Shown piece by piece: positions 1 to 34,558 of a stretch of DNA of 34,558 nucleotides (its first letter is position 1; each line of letters opens with the position of its first letter). Origin of the DNA: a virus (taxonomy: Duplodnaviria > Heunggongvirae > Uroviricota > Caudoviricetes > Peduoviridae); IMG/VR virus record IMGVR_UViG_2585427767_000007; one strand, given 5' to 3'. Below the pieces are notes generated by a model. That model was not told the origin of the DNA and searched no databases. It saw nothing but the letters and a program-made list of their open reading frames with translations. The translations under genes and the position numbers were made by a program.

Positions 1-981
1 TTATAACGTCACTCCGCCTTTTAGTGGATTCAGAGCGACGGCATTTTGCAGATAGTCAGGCGCAAGGTGCGCATAGGCCATCGTCTGCTGAATGCTCGCA
101 TGTCCCAGAATCTGTTGCAGTGCGATTATATTGCCCCCATTCATCATGAAATGGCTTGCGAATGTATGCCGCAGGATGTGGGTTGCCTGATTGGGTGGTA
201 TATCAGGTTTCACTCTGCGTAAAATCCCGCAAAATTTCTCATAATCAACTTTGAATAATTTGGCGCTGGCCTCCTCTTTAACTTTTTTCTCCAGTTCCTC
301 AGAAATCGGCACGGTTCGCTTTTTACCGTTTTTGGTTTTCAGGAAGGTAACCCTGCAATTTGTAATCTGTGCTGGTTTTAGCGTGGCAACTTCCGTCCAT
401 CTTCCTCCAGTGCTCAGACATAAAAGCGCGACAAGTAAGTCATCACCAGCCAAAACATTTAACAGTTTTTCGATTTCTGCTTTTTCCAGGAACGTCATTT
501 CAGGGTTGGCCTCCGCCAGTGGCGGCAGTCCGTGAATTGGGTGTTGCCCGGAAAATTCATCCAATTGAATTAATTTTGTGAACATGCCGGATAATCGGTA
601 CATGTCACGGTTTATCGTTGCGGCACTGATACCATCACGTAGTCGCATGGAACGATAATCCATCAAAGCCCTTTTGCTCATCCTGCTCACTGGTATATCA
701 CCTATGCCGCTGATGGTTTTGAGTAGATGATTAAACTCTTTTGTTCCATGCCCGTGGTTTTGCCCGTGATATTTCCACCAGATGTCCAGCAACTCACTCA
801 AAGTCCGGCGGTCTGCTCGCTGGCCTCCCCATTCTTTCTGACTGGCATTGGCGATTGTGTATCGCTCAAATGCTAGTGCTTCAGCTTTTCTTTCGAATTT
901 CCTGCGGATGCGTTTTCCGTCGCGACCGCGAGGTCTAATGTCCACTTCATAGCGACCATCATCGAGCTTCTTAATTGCCAT
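1..981 (-). CDS. int: Phage integrase, P2-type tyrosine recombinase
   Basis: Minus-strand ORF ending at window position 1. C-terminal HxxR...Y catalytic region (HILRHTFASHF...AYAHL) typical of tyrosine recombinases. N-terminus MAIKKLDDGRYEVD resembles remembered P2 Int; ATG at 979-981 has a GGAGGG Shine-Dalgarno 8 nt upstream. An alternative in-frame ATG at 1009-1011 would add 10 aa. Confidence 0.9.
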   Translation of the reverse strand: MAIKKLDDGRYEVDIRPRGRDGKRIRRKFERKAEALAFERYTIANASQKEWGGQRADRRTLSELLDIWWKYHGQNHGHGTKEFNHLLKTISGIGDIPVSRMSKRALMDYRSMRLRDGISAATINRDMYRLSGMFTKLIQLDEFSGQHPIHGLPPLAEANPEMTFLEKAEIEKLLNVLAGDDLLVALLCLSTGGRWTEVATLKPAQITNCRVTFLKTKNGKKRTVPISEELEKKVKEEASAKLFKVDYEKFCGILRRVKPDIPPNQATHILRHTFASHFMMNGGNIIALQQILGHASIQQTMAYAHLAPDYLQNAVALNPLKGGVTL

Positions 982-3237: not shown

Positions 3238-3512
3238 GTATTCGTATTGAAATTGGCGAACGTTATGTCGTTACCAGTGACAGCTTTCAGTTTATTCTCC
3301 ACGAGAAAAAGAGAGCGGAAAGCGGTAAAAACGCCGGTCAGGAATGGCTGGCGGTGGTTGGTTATTATCCGAAATTAAGCCAGCTCGTTTCCGGCCTGAT
3401 GCATCACGATATTCTGACCGGAAGCGCAAAATCTTTTGCCGATTTAAACACGCAGGTTGAGCAGCTCAGCAAGCGTTGTTCAGAGGCGTTCTCCAGAGGA
3501 GCGTCTGAATGA
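3234..3512 (+). CDS. Hypothetical early protein (92 aa)
   Basis: ATG 3234 with GGAGAAC upstream; stop overlaps the start of the next gene. Confidence 0.6.
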   Translation: MSIRIEIGERYVVTSDSFQFILHEKKRAESGKNAGQEWLAVVGYYPKLSQLVSGLMHHDILTGSAKSFADLNTQVEQLSKRCSEAFSRGASE

Positions 3513-4516
3513 TTACTGATGCTCGTTGCCATACTGAAAATACCATCAATGTTATTTTTGTTTCAGGTGGAAAGGACAGCCTTGCTCAGTGGCTTGTCGC
3601 TATTGAAGAAAATGTACCCATATTGCCGGTTTTTGCTGATACGGGACATGAACATCCACAGACAATGAAATATCTGGATTATCTGGAAAAACGGCTTGGC
3701 CCAATTAAAAGGGTCAGGGCTGATTTTTCCTGCCGGATTGAATCAAAGCGCAAGTTTATCCAGACCAAATGGCCTGATTTGTTGGTTAACGATTGTGGAA
3801 TGTCGGAAGAAGAAGCGCACCAGCGCATCAGTTGTGCGCTGGAAATTCTCAAACCAACGGGTATCCCGTTTCTTGATTTGTGTCTGTGGAAGGGGCGTTT
3901 CCCATCAACCAAAGCCAGATTTTGCACATTTGAACTGAAACATGAACCCGTGCGTTCTCAGGTAATCCTGCCTTTACTCAATGAATTTGAGGAAGTGATT
4001 AGCTGGCAGGGAGTGCGTGCTCAGGAATCGCCATCACGCGCAGCTTTACCTGTCTGGGAAGAGGATGCAGACAACACCCCCGGATTGCATGTATATCGCC
4101 CGATTTTGCACTGGAAGCATGAAGATGTATTTGCAATAGCCAGAAGACATGACATTAAGCCAAATCCGTTATATCTGCAGGGGTGTGGCCGTGTTGGTTG
4201 TATGCCATGTATTCATGTCCGTAAATCTGAACTGGCAGAAATTTTTCGCCGGTGGCCGGAGGAAATAAAGCGGGTTGCTGAATGGGAACGACTGGTTGCG
4301 TCGTGCTCCCGTCGGGGAAATTCCACTTTTTTCCCATCCACACATGATCCGTTACGCGCAGAACGTCGTATTGAGGTTGTAACAGTCGAGGCATACGGAA
4401 TTGAAACCTACCATGACTGGACAATGACAACGCGTGGGGGTACTCAGTTTGATTTACTGGCTTCGGCGAATGATAAAGCCGTTTGCAGTAGTGTCTATGC
4501 CGGTGTATGTGAATGA
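3509..4516 (+). CDS. PAPS-reductase-like PP-loop protein (phosphoadenosine phosphosulfate reductase family)
   Basis: N-terminal VIFVSGGKDS PP-loop (SGGxDS) motif and C-terminal cysteine cluster (GCGRVGCMPC). Translationally coupled to the downstream gpA gene (ATGA overlap at 4513-4516). Confidence 0.75.
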   Translation: MITDARCHTENTINVIFVSGGKDSLAQWLVAIEENVPILPVFADTGHEHPQTMKYLDYLEKRLGPIKRVRADFSCRIESKRKFIQTKWPDLLVNDCGMSEEEAHQRISCALEILKPTGIPFLDLCLWKGRFPSTKARFCTFELKHEPVRSQVILPLLNEFEEVISWQGVRAQESPSRAALPVWEEDADNTPGLHVYRPILHWKHEDVFAIARRHDIKPNPLYLQGCGRVGCMPCIHVRKSELAEIFRRWPEEIKRVAEWERLVASCSRRGNSTFFPSTHDPLRAERRIEVVTVEAYGIETYHDWTMTTRGGTQFDLLASANDKAVCSSVYAGVCE

Positions 4517-7043: not shown

Positions 7044-7329
7044 AAATGTATGCGGTATGTATGGAAAACCGCACCATAACGAGAAAAATATCCAGTATGA
7101 ATCTGCTTAGATTAATAGATCGCAGAAGAGAGAAGAGGTATTGAGCCATGATGCCAATTTGTGAGATACCGAAGTGTTATGACAAAGATGCTTTTAATGT
7201 TACATTCCGTCATTACTCTTATTAATCATCTATTTCAATAGATTAGGATTAATCTGGCTATGTCATTGAAGATGCTCGATGTCTCGATATTTCTTAGCTA
7301 AAATAGGAGGCACTAAGGGAGAGGATGTT

Positions 7330-8388
7330 ATGTCTAAAATTTATGCTATTGACCTTTTTTGTGGTGCAGGTGGATTAACCCATGGTTTGATACAAGCAGG
7401 GATTGGTGTCATTGCTGGTATTGATTTAGATCCAGATTGCAGATGGGCGTATGAGCACAACAACAAAGCTAAATATATAAATTCAGATATTTGTGATGTA
7501 ACAGGTCAAGACCTTATGCGCTTGTGGCCAGAACAGGGAATAAGACTTCTTGCTGGTTGCGCCCCATGTCAGCCTTTTTCAAGTTATCGAAAAGGCAAGA
7601 TTGAATCTGCTGACGGCAAATGGAAACTCTTAGGTGAATTTGGACGGCTAGTCAAAGAATCTTCACCAGACTTGATAACCATGGAAAACGTACCAAGGTT
7701 ACAAAAGCATAAAATTTTCTTGGATTTTGTTAAAGACCTTAAGAAAGGTGGGTATAAGGTCTGGTATGGCGTCGTTGACTGTCAACAATATGGTGTGCCT
7801 CAGAAAAGGCAGCGATTAGTTTTACTGGCATCCAAGATCAGTGATGTTGTGTTGATTCCTCCAACACATTCAGAAGATAACTACGTAACAGTGAAAGATG
7901 CTATTTCTCATTTGCCAGAGATAGATTCAGGGCAAGCTGATGAGAAAGATCCATTACACGTTGCTCAGGGAATGAGCCAATTAAATCTCGAAAGGATTCG
8001 TCAATCAAAACCAGGTGGAACATGGAAGGATTGGGATCCTGAGTTGGTTGCTGCGTGCCATAAGAAAAGTAGTGGCAAAACTTACACAAGTGTATATGGA
8101 CGGATGAGATGGGATGAACCAGCTCCTACAATGACAACCCTATGTTTTGGTTTTGGTAATGGACGTTTTGGGCATCCTCAACAGGATAGGGCCATTTCTT
8201 TACGTGAGGCAGCTATCTTTCAAAGTTTTCCGGAGAACTATGTTTTTTCTGAACCAGGTGCAAAGATCACATTTGCAACAGTTGGTCGCTTGATTGGTAA
8301 TGCCGTTCCGGTAAAACTAGGTGAAGTTGTAGGAAAATCATTTATTAATAGTCTATCTGGGGGTAGTAGGAGAAATGGCGGAGCATAG
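7330..8388 (+). CDS. DNA (cytosine-5)-methyltransferase, Dcm-type
   Basis: Canonical C5-MTase motifs in canonical order: motif I FCGAGG (IDLFCGAGGLTHGL), motif IV PCQPFS (catalytic Cys), motif VI ENV, motif VIII QKRQR, motif X GNAV. ATG 7330 with GGGAGAGG Shine-Dalgarno; the track start at 7279 is a longer upstream extension. Lower GC than the phage backbone. Confidence 0.9.
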   Translation: MSKIYAIDLFCGAGGLTHGLIQAGIGVIAGIDLDPDCRWAYEHNNKAKYINSDICDVTGQDLMRLWPEQGIRLLAGCAPCQPFSSYRKGKIESADGKWKLLGEFGRLVKESSPDLITMENVPRLQKHKIFLDFVKDLKKGGYKVWYGVVDCQQYGVPQKRQRLVLLASKISDVVLIPPTHSEDNYVTVKDAISHLPEIDSGQADEKDPLHVAQGMSQLNLERIRQSKPGGTWKDWDPELVAACHKKSSGKTYTSVYGRMRWDEPAPTMTTLCFGFGNGRFGHPQQDRAISLREAAIFQSFPENYVFSEPGAKITFATVGRLIGNAVPVKLGEVVGKSFINSLSGGSRRNGGA

Positions 8389-10372
8389 CGAAGTTTTATC
8401 GCATGTTGATGAAAAAACACATACTTATGAGATGCTGGTTAGCTTGAGTGTTCTGGGGCATCTGGGGATCAATCTATATAGCAATGTTGCGGCAGTGATT
8501 ACGGAAACAGTAGCTAATGCATGGGATGCAGATGCTACAGAAGTGCATATAAAACTTTCTCCTGACAGAATCACTATTTCGGATAATGGTTTTGGAATGA
8601 CCATTCATGATATGAATTCGAAATATCTAACAGTTGGCTATCAAAAAAGAAATGATAAAAGCCAGCTATTAACTCCCAAGGGACGACTACCCATGGGCAG
8701 AAAAGGTATTGGTAAGTTATCTTTATTTTCTATTGCAAAAACTGTAACGGTTGAATCAATCAAGGATGGAGAACGACATGGTTTAGTTATGGAAGTTCCA
8801 AAAATAGAGCATGCAATCAAAAGTGGGGCTGGTAGATATTATCCAGAACCTTTGGATTCTGCTCAACTTTCTGTGAGTCAAGGAACATTAGTAACATTGC
8901 GTGATCTAAATCGATCTCGCATACCTGCCACTGCAACCGCTTTGCGTAAAAAGTTAGCAAGGCGTTTTTCTGTTATTGGTAGTAATGATTTTAGGGTCTT
9001 CGTTGATGGTGTAGAAGTAACAGCAAAGGAACGTGAGGACCTAAAACATGTTCAGTTCGTATGGGATATTAACTCGGGGGTAGATTTTAAAAAAGAATGT
9101 CCGGGGTTAATAACTGTAACTGACATTTCATCATTTTTGACAGAAAGTCAATTATTTAATCCTGAATGGAGCATTAAAGGGTGGATTGGTAGTATAAAAC
9201 AGCCTAGTCAGTTGAATACACCTGAAGGAAATCTAAATAGCATTGTTGTTTTATCTAGAGGTCGATTGTTTCAAGAGAACATTTTAGATGATATAAACGA
9301 TGGTGGGATATACACAAAGTATCTTACAGGGCAACTTGAGGCAGACTTCCTTGATACAGATGAAGATGAAGATATTGCAACAAGTGATAGACAACGAGTT
9401 GTTGAAGATGACCCTCGTTATCAATATTTGAAATCATTGGTTAAGATTGCCCTGAGAAAGGTTGCTGGTCAATGGAGCTCACTACGAGAAAAGCAAGGAG
9501 CAAAGGAAGCTAAAGAATCGAATCCGGTACTTGCGGAGTGGATCGGTTCATTAAAACCTGCTTCCCGAGGCTATGCAGAAAAAATGATCGCTCAAATTGA
9601 ATCGTTGCCTTTGGAGGATAAACCACAAGAGAAGAAGGAACTCTTTAAGCATGCAATTTTTGCATTTGAGCGCTTGCGTATTAAGGAAATGTCGCAGGAG
9701 CTAGCTGATGCTGTATTTTTTAATGCAGAAAAATTATTGCCATTGCTTGAGAAACAAGACGATTTAGAGGCAACATTATATTATGAGATAGCTAAGAGTC
9801 GTGTAGATGTTATTCAAAGCTTCAAAGGCCTAGTCGATAACGATGAAAAAGAAAAAGTATTGCAACGTTATCTTTTTGAACACCTTTGGTTATTAGACCC
9901 ATCATGGGAAAGAATTGATGGTTCTCCAATAATGGAGTCGCGTGTTAACCAAGAGTGGGACAAGATTGATGCTGGCCTGAGTGAAGAAGAGAAGAAAGGT
10001 CGTATGGATATAAAATATCGCTCATCTGCAGGTAAGCATATTATCATTGAACTTAAGAGAGCTAGCGTATTGACTTCTGTTGCAAATCTAGTCAGTCAGG
10101 GGAATAAGTACAGGCAGGCAGTAATTAAGTGTGCAAAAGCTGTTGACCCGGCCTCAACACCATCAATTGATGTGATTTTTGTCCTTGGTCGAGAGCCATC
10201 AGATTATGCGTTAGACCCATCTTATACTAACCTTCAGCTACAGTCAGTGAATGGTCGGATTGTTTATTATGATGGGCTAATTAATAGCGCACAGAGCTCG
10301 TATAGAGAATATACAGAGAGGCAGGCTACTGTTGCAAGGATTGCTGAAATCGTTAAAAAACTAGATGACTAG
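8375..10372 (+). CDS. GHKL/HATPase_c-type ATPase (665 aa) with C-terminal PD-(D/E)xK-like nuclease motif; candidate restriction/defence effector
   Basis: Bergerat-fold motifs near the N-terminus: N-box ETVANAWDA (ExxxNAxDA), G1 box DNGFGM, G2 box GRKGIGKLS. C-terminal region has D...ExK pattern (GRMDIKY...HIIIELKR). ATG 8375 overlaps the MTase stop by 14 nt with AGGAG upstream. Low GC. Confidence 0.8.
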   Translation: MAEHSEVLSHVDEKTHTYEMLVSLSVLGHLGINLYSNVAAVITETVANAWDADATEVHIKLSPDRITISDNGFGMTIHDMNSKYLTVGYQKRNDKSQLLTPKGRLPMGRKGIGKLSLFSIAKTVTVESIKDGERHGLVMEVPKIEHAIKSGAGRYYPEPLDSAQLSVSQGTLVTLRDLNRSRIPATATALRKKLARRFSVIGSNDFRVFVDGVEVTAKEREDLKHVQFVWDINSGVDFKKECPGLITVTDISSFLTESQLFNPEWSIKGWIGSIKQPSQLNTPEGNLNSIVVLSRGRLFQENILDDINDGGIYTKYLTGQLEADFLDTDEDEDIATSDRQRVVEDDPRYQYLKSLVKIALRKVAGQWSSLREKQGAKEAKESNPVLAEWIGSLKPASRGYAEKMIAQIESLPLEDKPQEKKELFKHAIFAFERLRIKEMSQELADAVFFNAEKLLPLLEKQDDLEATLYYEIAKSRVDVIQSFKGLVDNDEKEKVLQRYLFEHLWLLDPSWERIDGSPIMESRVNQEWDKIDAGLSEEEKKGRMDIKYRSSAGKHIIIELKRASVLTSVANLVSQGNKYRQAVIKCAKAVDPASTPSIDVIFVLGREPSDYALDPSYTNLQLQSVNGRIVYYDGLINSAQSSYREYTERQATVARIAEIVKKLDD

Positions 10373-25892: not shown

Positions 25893-26486
25893 ATGTTTAC
25901 TAAGCGACGATTAAAAAATATTAACTGGGAGGCAAGTTCAGTGATTCTTGCTATGGTTCTCTTTGTTGGAAATATATTTTATACAAATCATCGTGATGAT
26001 ATAAGCATGGAGGCTGAGAGGGACAGTATCAGAACAATGTTTGCATATGAAATCGCTAATAACCATCGCGCTCTCACTTTTCTTGATAAAACGAGACATA
26101 TTGGCTTTGACGAAAATTCGGAGCATTTTGTTGGCGAGCCTTTTGCCATTAATGTCAAATCATTAGGGGGGCCTCGCTTACAGATTGCATTAAACCAGAC
26201 TGATAAAGTGTTTAAATCCTACTTCAGCGAATTAAGTAAGCTTGGTAAAGAGGATGTTACTCTTCTTATGGACTATTACCATGAGCAAAGCATCCTGCTG
26301 GAGCGTGTAAAATCTACGTTACAGAAGATGAAAAGTGGTAATGATATTAAAGTTGATATTGATGGTTACTTATTAGAAGAACACTTCATGAATGAGCTTA
26401 ATCTTTCTAATATTTTGCTTAAACGCTATAGCCATTTGTTGTCACAATACGCTAAAGAACATAAAACAAAAGATTTACATAATTGA
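25893..26486 (+). CDS. AT-rich moron at the P2 Z/fun locus: 197-aa hypothetical protein with N-terminal membrane anchor
   Basis: ATG 25893 with AAGG upstream. Single hydrophobic segment SSVILAMVLFVGNIF near the N-terminus. Markedly lower GC than the flanking tail genes; followed by a strong terminator. Confidence 0.65.
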   Translation: MFTKRRLKNINWEASSVILAMVLFVGNIFYTNHRDDISMEAERDSIRTMFAYEIANNHRALTFLDKTRHIGFDENSEHFVGEPFAINVKSLGGPRLQIALNQTDKVFKSYFSELSKLGKEDVTLLMDYYHEQSILLERVKSTLQKMKSGNDIKVDIDGYLLEEHFMNELNLSNILLKRYSHLLSQYAKEHKTKDLHN

Positions 26487-31476: not shown

Positions 31477-31956
31477 ATGATGCTCGCGTTAGGTATGTTT
31501 GTTTTTATGCGCCAGACGCTGCCACACCAGACCATGCAGCGTGAATCAGATTATCGCTGGCCGTCAAATTCCCGTATCGGTAAACGGGATGCCTACCAGT
31601 TTCTCGGCGTTGGCGAGGAAAACATCACGCTTGCCGGTGTGCTTTATCCCGAACTGACCGGCGGAAAGCTGACGATGACCACGCTCAGGCTGATGGCAGA
31701 GGAAGGCCGGGCGTGGCCGTTGCTGGATGGCACTGGCATGATTTACGGCATGTATGTCATCAGCAGGGTGAGTGAAACAGGGAGTATTTTCTTTGCAGAC
31801 GGCACACCCCGGAAAATTGATTTTACGCTGTCGCTCACCCGCGTTGATGAATCACTGGCCGCGCTTTATGGCGATATCGGTAAACAGACGGAATCGCTCA
31901 TCGGTAAAGCTGGCAGTATGGCGACCAGATTCACGGGTATGACGGGGGCGGCATAA
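31477..31956 (+). CDS. U: Tail protein gpU
   Basis: 159 aa, AAGGAGG Shine-Dalgarno upstream; matches P2 gpU. Confidence 0.85.
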   Translation: MMLALGMFVFMRQTLPHQTMQRESDYRWPSNSRIGKRDAYQFLGVGEENITLAGVLYPELTGGKLTMTTLRLMAEEGRAWPLLDGTGMIYGMYVISRVSETGSIFFADGTPRKIDFTLSLTRVDESLAALYGDIGKQTESLIGKAGSMATRFTGMTGAA

Positions 31957-33119
31957 TGCTGGATGCACTGACATTTGATGCAGGCAGTACGCTGACGCCG
32001 GATTACATGCTGATGCTCGACAGCAGGGATATTACCGGCAATATCAGCGACCGTCTGATGAGTATGACCCTGACGGATAACCGGGGCTTTGAGGCTGACC
32101 AGCTTGATATTGAACTGAACGATGCCGACGGGCAGGTCGGGCTGCCGGTTCGTGGCGCTGTCCTGACGGTGTATATCGGCTGGAAAGGTTTTGCCCTGGT
32201 ATGCAAAGGGAAATTCACCGTTGATGAGGTTGAACACCGGGGCGCGCCGGATGTGGTCACCATCCGCGCCCGGAGTGCAGATTTCCGCGGGACGCTCAAT
32301 TCCCGCCGGGAAGGCTCCTGGCATGACACCACGCTCGGTGCAATTGTTGAGGCGATAGCCTCCCGTAACAGGCTGGAAGCCAGTGTCGCTCCGTCACTGG
32401 CCGGAATTAAAATCCCGCACATCGACCAGTCGCAGGAGTCTGATGCGAAATTCCTGACCCGTCTTGCAGAACGCAACGGCGGTGAGGTGTCGGTAAAAAT
32501 GGGAAAACTGTTGTTTCTCAAAGCGGGGCAGGGGGTGACGGCCAGTGGTAAAAAAATCCCGCAGATTACCATCACCCGCAGTGACGGCGACCGCCATCAT
32601 TTTGCGATTGCTGACCGTGGAGCCTATACCGGCGTAACAGCAAAGTGGTTACACACCAAAGACCCGAAACCGCAAAAGCAGAAGGTAAAACTGAAACGCA
32701 AAAAGAAAGAAAAACACCTGCGCGCACTGGAGCACCCGAAAGCGAAACCGGTCAGGCAGAAGAAAGCGCCTAAAGTACCGGAAGCGCGCGAAGGTGAATA
32801 CATGGCCGGTGAGGCTGATAACGTTTTTGCCCTGACCACGGTATATGCCACGAAAGCGCAGGCCATGCGCGCCGCTCAGGCGAAGTGGGATAAACTGCAA
32901 CGGGGTGTTGCGGAGTTCTCCATCAGCCTGGCTACCGGTCGGGCAGATATTTACACGGAAACACCGGTTAAAGTGTCAGGCTTTAAGCGCGTCATAGACG
33001 AGCAGGACTGGACAATCACTAAGGTGACACATTTTCTGAATAATAGCGGCTTCACGACGTCCTTGGAGCTTGAGGTCAGGCTTTCTGATGTGGAGTACGA
33101 AACAGAAGATGATGAGTGA
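31956..33119 (+). CDS. D: Tail protein gpD
   Basis: 387 aa, start overlapping the U stop; matches P2 gpD. Confidence 0.85.
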   Translation: MLDALTFDAGSTLTPDYMLMLDSRDITGNISDRLMSMTLTDNRGFEADQLDIELNDADGQVGLPVRGAVLTVYIGWKGFALVCKGKFTVDEVEHRGAPDVVTIRARSADFRGTLNSRREGSWHDTTLGAIVEAIASRNRLEASVAPSLAGIKIPHIDQSQESDAKFLTRLAERNGGEVSVKMGKLLFLKAGQGVTASGKKIPQITITRSDGDRHHFAIADRGAYTGVTAKWLHTKDPKPQKQKVKLKRKKKEKHLRALEHPKAKPVRQKKAPKVPEAREGEYMAGEADNVFALTTVYATKAQAMRAAQAKWDKLQRGVAEFSISLATGRADIYTETPVKVSGFKRVIDEQDWTITKVTHFLNNSGFTTSLELEVRLSDVEYETEDDE

Positions 33120-33200
33120 TGCTTTTATTTTATCTGTTTGTTTTATAAGGATAAATTAACTAAAATGGCACCATCAACAAAACCGGAAGAGGTGCTCGCG

Positions 33201-33419
33201 ATGTTTCATTGTCCTTTATGCCAGCATGCCGCACATGCGCGTACAAGCCGCTATATCACTGACACGACAAAAGAGCGTTATCATCAGTGCCAGAACGTGA
33301 ATTGCAGTGCCACGTTCATCACTTATGAGTCGGTACAGCGATACATCGTGAAGCCGGGAGAAGTCCACGCCGTAAGGCCGCACCCGTTGCCGTCAGGGCA
33401 GCAAATTATGTGGATGTGA
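33201..33419 (+). CDS. ogr: Late-gene transcriptional activator Ogr (zinc-finger)
   Basis: ATG 33201 (MFHCPLCQHAAHAR...) gives 72 aa with CxxC...CxxxxC zinc-binding cysteines (CPLC...CQNVNC); matches remembered P2 Ogr. The track ORF from 33138 begins at a TTG. Confidence 0.85.
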   Translation: MFHCPLCQHAAHARTSRYITDTTKERYHQCQNVNCSATFITYESVQRYIVKPGEVHAVRPHPLPSGQQIMWM

Positions 33420-33429
33420 TCACAAAAAT

Positions 33430-33456
33430 AGCCCCTCAGTTGAGGGGCTTTATTTA
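33430..33456 (+). terminator. Rho-independent terminator after ogr
   Basis: AGCCCCTCA-gt-TGAGGGGCT hairpin followed by TTTATTT, 10 nt after the ogr stop. Confidence 0.65.
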
Positions 33457-33612
33457 TGGTCGATGTGGACGCTATGTGGACAGTGGTTGATATAAATCCA
33501 TTTATATCATCAGGTTAGGTGCTTTTTTGTGACACCATCCCTGTCTTCCCCCACATGATGTGGGGTTTTTTTTTATCCTCAATTTGCTTGCTGCTTAATG
33601 CATTGCAGATGA
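33457..33612. other. Putative attR region (phage arm plus core), boundaries not resolved
   Basis: Between ogr and host fieF. Contains direct repeat ATGTGGAC x2 (33462-33469, 33473-33480), palindrome GATATAAAT-cca-ATTTATATC (33489-33509), and hairpin CCCCACAT-gatg-TGGGG followed by T9 (about 33549-33575). attL is not in the window, so the core cannot be confirmed. Confidence 0.4.
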
Positions 33613-33655
33613 TTTGCTTCCGTTATACTACCGTCAGTTGATAGCGGGAGTATTT

Positions 33656-34558
33656 ATGAATCAATCTTATGGACGGCTGGTCAGTCGGGCGGCGATTGCT
33701 GCGACGGCGATGGCTTCGCTGCTATTGCTGATTAAAATTTTTGCATGGTGGTATACCGGGTCGGTGAGTATTCTCGCCGCGCTGGTGGATTCGCTGGTGG
33801 ATATCGGCGCGTCGTTGACGAATTTACTGGTGGTGCGATATTCCCTGCAACCTGCCGACGATAATCACTCGTTTGGTCACGGTAAAGCTGAGTCCCTCGC
33901 GGCGCTGGCGCAAAGTATGTTTATCTCCGGTTCGGCACTATTCCTGTTTTTGACGGGTATTCAACATCTGGTATCTCCAACACCGATGACAGATCCAGGC
34001 GTCGGGGTTATCGTGACAATTGTGGCGCTAATTTGTACGATTATCCTTGTCTCGTTTCAGCGTTGGGTGGTGCGCCGGACGCAAAGCCAGGCGGTGCGGG
34101 CTGATATGCTACATTACCAGTCTGATGTTATGATGAACGGTGCAATTCTGCTGGCGCTGGGGTTGTCCTGGTACGGCTGGCATCGCGCCGATGCTCTGTT
34201 TGCATTGGGAATCGGCATCTATATTTTATATAGCGCGTTACGCATGGGATATGAGGCGGTACAGTCATTACTGGATCGCGCATTGCCTGATGAAGAACGG
34301 CAAGAAATTATTGATATCGTGACTTCCTGGCCGGGTGTTAGCGGCGCTCACGATCTTCGCACGCGGCAGTCAGGGCCGACCCGCTTTATTCAGATTCATT
34401 TGGAAATGGAAGACTCTCTGCCTTTGGTTCAGGCACATATGGTGGCGGATCAGGTAGAGCAGGCTATTTTACGGCGTTTTCCGGGATCGGATGTGATTAT
34501 CCATCAGGACCCCTGTTCCGTCGTACCCAGGGAGGGTAAACGGTCTATGCTTTCATAA
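33656..34558 (+). CDS. fieF: Host cation-efflux transporter FieF (CDF family, ferrous iron/zinc)
   Basis: 300-aa protein from ATG 33656 (GGGAG Shine-Dalgarno) matches remembered E. coli FieF/YiiP ([36 protein letters not shown]...). Terminal TAA is the last codon of the window. Confidence 0.9.

Follow-up and report, generated by a model that had tools for sequence, protein, structure and literature searches.

A probable WPhi-type attR site at the right end of a P2-family prophage between cpxP and fieF of Escherichia coli

Gene content of the window

The window, by which we mean the whole stretch of DNA analysed (34,558 nucleotides), comprises a complete P2-family prophage and the host gene fieF, as shown by its ORF map and by the annotation of the 99.9%-identical prophage of strain CB209 (an identity that extends across window positions 9600-34558). 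The genes that frame the region are the following.

1-981, minus strand: int, WPhi-type tyrosine integrase (phage integrase in the CB209 and MZ1211 annotation)
1466-1753: cox (ORF map and CB209 annotation)
31956-33119: D (ORF map and CB209 annotation)
33201-33419, plus strand: ogr, late-gene activator and final phage gene before the attachment site (ogrK in CB209; ogr in WPhi and P2)
33656-34558, plus strand: fieF, host gene for a CDF cation-efflux transporter (genome annotations)

In the window gene order, int is followed by C, cox, an early operon and a replication gene; past the last of these come a restriction-modification cargo pair and then the portal, terminase, head, lysis and tail genes. 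Cargo was found at the usual P2 variable spots (3509-4516, 7279-10372 and 25893-26486, all on the plus strand; names taken from the CB209 annotation). The early operon encodes a PAPS-reductase-domain protein, the replication-portal interval holds genes for a DNA cytosine methyltransferase and a BbrUII/HgiDII-family restriction enzyme, and a gene for a 197-aa hypothetical protein lies next after the tail-fibre assembly gene.

The window Int is identical to WPhi Int at 321 of 326 amino acids (98%), and an integrase of the P2/WPhi lineage thus stands beside the attachment site, as in a WPhi-class attR. Its N-terminal motif GRYEVDIR fits the Y..D.R pattern, which has been proposed as a discriminator for P2-type arm sites (PMC3448106). 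Neither the P' arm nor attL of the source strain falls in the window, both being placed to the left of its first position; attL sequence was read from the near-identical prophages of two other strains, CB209 and MZ1211.

The interval between ogr and fieF was resolved into the modules listed here.

33430-33458 (hairpin 33430-33449), both strands: intrinsic terminator of ogr and the F operon (8-bp stem with 6 GC pairs, T-rich tail)
33463-33470, plus strand: predicted Int arm-type site 1 of the P arm, ATGTGGAC (aligns with the P2 "Int, P arm" feature; consensus fit)
33474-33482, plus strand: predicted Int arm-type site 2 of the P arm, ATGTGGACA (same basis as site 1)
33488-33509: perfect A/T inverted repeat TGATATAAAT-cc-ATTTATATCA (10-nt arms at 33488-33497 and 33500-33509, 2-nt spacer)
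33505-33517, plus strand: candidate IHF-like motif TATCATCAGGTTA (one mismatch against WATCAANNNNTTR)
33531-33577, plus strand: 47-bp att core (common core, O), GACACCATCCCTGTCTTCCCCCACATGATGTGGGGTTTTTTTTTATC (attB/attL/attR/attP four-way alignment)
33531-33557: zone that probably contains the strand-exchange (overlap) region (loop-base segregation and identity start points)
33549-33574, plus strand: cpxP/CpxQ Rho-independent terminator, inside the core (hairpin and T9; the same element follows cpxP in K-12)
33578-33655, plus strand: host DNA on the B' side, fieF leader and promoter region (collinear with all 5,426 complete E. coli genomes)

The P arm

Downstream of ogr, the terminator at 33430-33458 has a folding energy of -16.7 kcal/mol (z = -4.1), forms a stronger hairpin than that of the core, and is homologous by alignment to the terminator annotated in P2 (NC_001895); it was absent from the initial annotation of this DNA. 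The terminator scan scored it on the minus strand as well. In the circular phage, we speculate, the minus-strand terminator would stop int transcripts that run past attP, in a manner reminiscent of lambda sib; in the prophage form, int is separated from it.

Two copies of ATGTGGAC, at 33463-33470 and 33474-33481, lie 11 bp apart, start to start. Given that both strands of the 34.5-kb window contain only three copies in total, against 0.96 expected, two copies in 11-bp phase are not attributable to chance. WPhi attP and the P arm of P2 also contain this pair of arm sites, and when P2, WPhi and the window were aligned, window 33460-33487 fell on the annotated Int P-arm feature of P2. Moreover, the repeats fit the published P2-type arm-site consensus tgTGGaCa (PMC3448106), providing the two or more direct arm repeats of a P2-type attR. 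The initial annotation had taken these tandem repeats for integrase arm-type sites, a prediction that the consensus fit and the alignment with the P2 "Int, P arm" feature bear out. A P' arm pair, GTGTGGACActATGTGGACA, is present in the attL of related prophages.

The next module is the A/T inverted repeat, which had previously been described as two 9-nt arms around cca. The repeat is real, and its arms are 10 nt long around a 2-nt spacer; the cca had counted one base twice. When the window was scanned for inverted repeats whose perfect arms are 9 nt or longer and whose loop does not exceed 6 nt, 14 hits were obtained that collapse to about nine distinct repeats, compared with an average of 0.9 hits in composition-matched shuffles. 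The majority of the other inverted repeats resemble terminator or operator sites.

In the alignment, the A/T repeat sits where the P2 record annotates IHF binding, and it overlaps the IHF-like motif. It had been proposed to be either a host-factor site or a core-type site; these two positions argue for the former, and the core-type role did not hold. The motif TATCATCAGGTTA aligns column for column with TTTCAATTTATTG inside the annotated P2 IHF feature, each of the two departing once from WATCAANNNNTTR, and the equivalent of the entire P2 feature is approximately window 33491-33524. A relaxed IHF motif matches eight times in the window (about once per 4 kb) and is weak evidence alone. It is the positional homology to P2, not the motif itself, that carries the weight of the predicted IHF assignment, which consists of a single site between the arm sites and the core, with a one-mismatch motif at the P2-homologous position. 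P2-type P arms repeatedly show the pattern TCA-N5-TTR.

When IMG/VR was searched with the arm-site pattern, 120 DNA stretches were obtained, from which 61 distinct P2-type P arms (loci L003-L125) were taken. All 61 share one layout, in which two arm sites, an interval of 6-8 nt, an A/T inverted repeat of 8 bp, the TCA-N5-TTR motif and a spacer of variable length precede cores that differ; the search pattern itself imposes the conservation of the arm-site columns, but not that of the downstream modules. The 8-bp central repeat was complementary in 98.4% of cells, with both-side changes at three of the eight pairs (A-T to T-A twice, T-A to C-G once) and with seven single uncompensated variants. 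This compensatory pattern was reached in 0 of 500 shuffles and by no slid control, a test that overstates significance because the P arms are related by descent. The repeat arms read GAAATAAA/TTTATTTC in P2, GATATAAA/TTTATATC in WPhi, GAAATTAA/TTAATTTC at loci L072 and L122, and GAAACAAA/TTTGTTTC at L068. The A/T repeat is kept in P2-type phages irrespective of the core.

The compensatory changes could possibly reflect selection for a hairpin or symmetric site, template-switch mutation, or shared descent. It is rather unlikely that the repeat is a functional element of its own, whether as a hairpin, a cruciform, a symmetric-dimer site or through an RNA role, and not merely the A/T half of an IHF site. 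In the RNA version, int transcripts made from attP would contain the repeat within their 3' region, much as with lambda sib; the minus-strand score of the ogr terminator fits this, since transcription of int in the circular phage would run through the repeat. The near-complete complementarity and the both-side changes unmatched by the shuffles also count for such a function, as does the fact that IHF sites are normally asymmetric. However, the repeat occupies the position of IHF binding in the P2 record, its all-A-T stem is weak (-7.1 kcal/mol, z = -1.9), and both the uncompensated variants and the relatedness of the sequences speak against it; template-switch mutation in quasi-palindromes can, moreover, yield compensatory changes without selection. 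We assign this module to the predicted IHF region and not to the core.

The common core and the junction with host DNA

Phage DNA lies to the left of the core, about 13 bp separate the core from the IHF-like element, and host DNA resumes at 33578. When a 321-nt junction query was compared with the complete E. coli genomes, all 5,426 of 5,426 matched, most of them only from query position 152 (window 33531) rightward. In CB209, identical copies of the core were found at both prophage ends, one beyond int and one after ogr, and in CB209 and MZ1211 alike the 47 bp lie between cpxP and the P' arm, just past the int stop codon. The empty site of K-12 runs from the cpxP stop through 23 nt and GACACCATCCCTGTCTTCCCCCACATGcTGTGGGGGTTTTTTTTATC into the fieF leader, and WPhi attP (AY135739) consists of the P arm, the same 47 bp and the P' arm. 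The WPhi core is identical at 47 of 47 positions in the empty sites of JJ1887, RM10042 and one O157:H7 strain; in the K-12 core, one loop base differs (C instead of A). Compared with WPhi attP, the attL of the near-identical prophages and the empty sites, the window core shows one difference, a G-to-T at 33566. The core is thus repeated at attL, attR, attP and attB, with the attL copies taken from the near-identical prophages of other strains. The same P arm and core occur in the free phages WPhi, P24B2, HQ103, fiAA91-ss and L-413C; the joined P-core-P' form is found in free phages, and both occupied and empty sites exist among the genomes.

The initial annotation had placed an attR arm and core within 33457-33612 and the prophage between fieF and its normal upstream neighbour. 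Both proposals proved sound: the four-way alignment puts the core at 33531-33577, and the neighbour is cpxP. The two checks that it had named came out accordingly, with the matching core repeat found just beyond int in the 99.9%-identical prophages (CB209, MZ1211) and the empty-site alignment placing the junction inside that interval. Two further, weak direct repeats were treated as chance, namely 33508-33528 against 33554-33574 (71% identity) and the ATTTGCTT pair in the fieF leader.

The core as the 3' part of CpxQ

By sequence comparison, the core corresponds to the 3'-terminal 47 nt of the cpxP 3'UTR, from which the envelope-stress small RNA CpxQ derives, and it makes up about the 3' three-quarters of CpxQ. 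The length of CpxQ is about 60 nt (PMC9438474). The core hairpin, CCCCACA-tga-TGTGGGG (33549-33565) followed by T9 (33566-33574), scores as a terminator and folds stably, so that the window copy has the Rho-independent hairpin and U tract of CpxQ. The initial annotation was right in suspecting that the hairpin and T9 belong to a terminator of the host gene upstream of fieF, which is cpxP/CpxQ; its suggestion that the terminator was reconstituted at the junction did not hold, the element being contained within the core and present at both junctions.

The window copy begins GACACC, with the CpxQ 5' segment UUUUCCUUGCCAUA replaced by phage sequence, and it follows ogr, not cpxP. As seen in related prophages, the full cpxP-CpxQ unit belongs to attL, beyond the window. 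No sigma-70-like promoter for the attR core copy was found in a promoter scan of 33000-33800. We conclude that the window copy of CpxQ is a remnant and not a second gene.

With the G-to-T at 33566, GGGGG-T8 becomes GGGG-T9, and the terminator stem has 7 bp instead of 8. This T9 variant was also seen at the attR of IMG/VR loci L069 and L103; it was absent from CB209 and WPhi, and a perfect match to it occurred in 0 of the 4,591 genomes that matched the empty-site query. Either a derived change or an error in homopolymer length could account for it. The idea that T9 is a common host allele, and hence a second marker of the exchange, was dropped on account of the 4,591 genomes.

A scan of the window against Rfam returned no family named CpxQ; the only relevant hit was Hrs1, on the opposite strand and below threshold. 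Hrs1 (RF02628) matches the CpxQ locus on the strand opposite cpxP, and its consensus opens with an A run followed by a hairpin. The scores were 68.9 bits in Erwinia amylovora (L231 72-146, plus strand, above the gathering score), 41.4 bits in K-12 (L001 1472-1544, minus strand) and 28.8 bits in the window (33508-33573, minus strand). From these matches, the Hrs1 model appears to be the reverse complement of a CpxQ homologue.

In a lysogen, the stretch of CpxQ between about CACCAUCCC and the terminator would be of phage origin, as a base difference shows for one E. coli lineage (see below). The site therefore offers a concrete and testable case of a phage that targets a small RNA stemming from a 3'UTR. 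We consider it improbable that lysogeny alters CpxQ function, or that the attR remnant or the P-arm palindrome (as hairpin or cruciform) has a role of its own. If this were true, lysogeny could change the sequence, stability or termination of CpxQ, and the promoter-less attR remnant might yield a truncated RNA in late phage transcription. In the literature searched on CpxQ and cpxP together with prophages and attachment sites, no paper linking CpxQ to the WPhi site was found.

More specifically, the attR core copy might be expressed by read-through from ogr or late transcription as a 5'-altered CpxQ-like RNA, the long core then being regulatory as well as recombinational. The copy retains 44 nt of the 3'UTR including the terminator, has a CpxQ-like fold, reaches the 28.8 bits noted above against the Rfam model covering a CpxQ homologue, and is preceded by a U-rich stretch. 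This reading is nonetheless very improbable, given that the promoter scan was empty, that a strong terminator (33430-33458) stands between ogr and the core, that the 5' approximately 11-14 nt of CpxQ are missing, and that the need to restore the target gene at its 3' end, familiar from tRNA-targeting integrases, fully accounts for a core of this length.

Strand exchange and assignment of the site

In the clonal lineage formed by M217, 51008369SK1, Sanji and CM IVRI KOL-1 (L130-L133), whose host allele is K-12-like, the cpxP-fieF site is occupied by a decayed prophage of the WPhi type. ISEc12, ISEc22 and IS150 are inserted in this prophage, IS150 together with a 642-nt ORF between ogr and the arm sites, and in 51008369SK1 much of the central structural-gene region is also gone; the att sites can still be made out. 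At the polymorphic loop position (window 33558), K-12 attB has C and WPhi attP has A; 51008369SK1 has the phage-type A in its attL and the host-type C in its attR. The exchange would therefore have occurred to the left of 33558, within GACACCATCCCTGTCTTCCCCCACATG, a position that rests on one base difference in one clonal lineage. It follows that in the 51008369SK1 lineage the terminator at attR comes from the host and the one at attL from the phage. In agreement with this position of the exchange, host identity begins within 0-2 nt of CACCATCCC in at least eight phage lineages from several genera. The symmetry (A)GACA-ccatccc-TGTC(T), with a 7-bp overlap, was considered as a pair of core-type Int sites and was set aside as conjecture, its phage-side half not being conserved in other genera.

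From these features we infer protein binding, the exact cleavage points and the activity of the att site as follows. Int would act as a heterobivalent tyrosine recombinase, with its N-terminal domain on the two P-arm sites, and would bridge arm and core sites across an IHF bend at the A/T element. Strand exchange would take place in the left part of the core (33531-33557). Integration would leave cpxP/CpxQ complete at attL, with the 3' part supplied by the phage, and the original host terminator would be relocated to attR, between ogr and fieF. Excision would recombine attL with attR by means of Int, IHF and Cox, and Cox sites would be expected in the P' arm, left of the window.

That the repeats, palindrome and hairpin serve instead to regulate their neighbours (the ogr 3' end or a fieF promoter/operator) is hardly credible, even with elements that are intergenic and directly upstream of fieF and a hairpin/T9 that the terminator scan identifies as a true terminator, because everything left of 33531 is missing from empty sites, the elements travel with free phages (WPhi, P24B2, HQ103, L-413C), and the same modules precede different cores and host genes in other P2-type phages. 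Taken together, the alignments indicate, with a probability of roughly 0.93, that window 33460-33577 is the attR (P arm plus core) of a WPhi-type P2-family prophage at E. coli cpxP-fieF. For annotation, the right prophage boundary can be fixed at 33531-33577 and the modules can be named.

Frequency of the prophage and use of the same target in other genera

Of the 5,426 complete E. coli genomes, 624 matched the 321-nt attR query over at least 80% of its length, and 786 did so for a shorter, 121-nt attR query; the window int is carried by 719-790 genomes. The empty-site (attB) query was matched over at least 80% by 4,591 genomes, consistent with an unoccupied site. Such a prophage is thus present in about 11-15% of complete E. 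coli genomes. The WPhi site was reportedly defined by Karlsson et al. in 2006. For E. coli W, an entry reads "cpxP-fieF: Wphi1 (P2)" (PMC3032704), and WPhi and L-413C have been given one MG1655 coordinate and identical cores (PMC3448106). WPhi-type integration at cpxP-fieF is therefore already known, and the attachment site adds nothing new.

A CpxQ-like core was found in about 100 Enterobacterales species. In Yersinia, Brenneria, Kosakonia, Serratia, Erwinia and Pectobacterium, a P2-type P arm adjoins a CpxQ-like 3' end (CACCATCCCTGTCTT through to the terminator), at the following loci.

P arm at a CpxQ-like 3' end: L149, L167/L188, L204/L170, L168, L225, L179/L227, L200, L013, L023, L068, L078, L095, L105

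At these loci, host identity always begins within 0-2 nt of CACC. Three of the species (two from Brenneria and one from Erwinia) have another copy of the core elsewhere on the contig, at a distance of roughly 8-40 kb. Judged from these junctions, P2-type phages have settled on the CpxQ spot in at least seven Enterobacterales genera, that of E. coli included. At L089, the E. coli core is joined to a P2-like, not a WPhi-like, P arm. Another P2-type core, AAAAAATAAGCCCGTGTAAGGGAGATT with the host flank ...ACACAGGCTAAGGAGGTGGTTCCTGGTACAGCTAGCA, was found in L008, L034 and many other IMG/VR loci; core and flank presumably correspond, in reverse complement, to the CyaR small RNA at its 3' end. Small-RNA terminators seem to be usual targets of the P2-type integrase family.

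Comparison with known systems

The closest known relative is WPhi, with which the window shares a 98% identical Int, an identical P arm, the same host site and the same 47-bp core bar one base. It differs from WPhi in that base (T for G at 33566) and in its cargo genes, the window prophage carrying the restriction-modification pair.

In P2 (NC_001895), an ogr terminator, two arm sites 11 bp apart, an A/T repeat with an IHF site, and a core occur in the same order. The P2 RefSeq features run terminator, Int P arm, IHF, Int core, Cox and Int P' arm, and the window aligns to the first three of these; the P2 binding sites have been worked on by the Haggard-Ljungquist laboratory. In contrast, P2 has a different, 27-bp core at another locus, its IHF motif lies 5 nt from the core (13 nt in the window), and its first arm site is ATGTGGTC where the window has ATGTGGAC.

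As in lambda, arm-type and core-type Int sites would be bridged by an IHF bend, and the common core is shared with the host. P2-type attP has one IHF site, compared with three in lambda, and the directionality factor is Cox in P2-type systems and Xis in lambda. The identity segment is 15 bp in lambda and 47 bp in the window, where it is longer because it rebuilds the 3' end of a gene.

In this last respect, the window resembles the systems in which an integrase targets the 3' end of a tRNA or small RNA gene (186, P4, and Fels-2/SopEPhi at ssrA; P2-type phages at cyaR and rybB; Salmonella sdsR), where the phage likewise carries the 3' part of the RNA gene. Since the phage supplies its own version of the 3' portion of the structured RNA gene, the target is intact after integration (PMC3448106). 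The cyaR RNA and ssrA are among the sites of P2-type and other prophages (PMC3032704), and the sdsR locus is an integration target in Salmonella (PMC3333887). The window differs from these systems in that its target is the 3'UTR-derived CpxQ and not a free-standing RNA gene.
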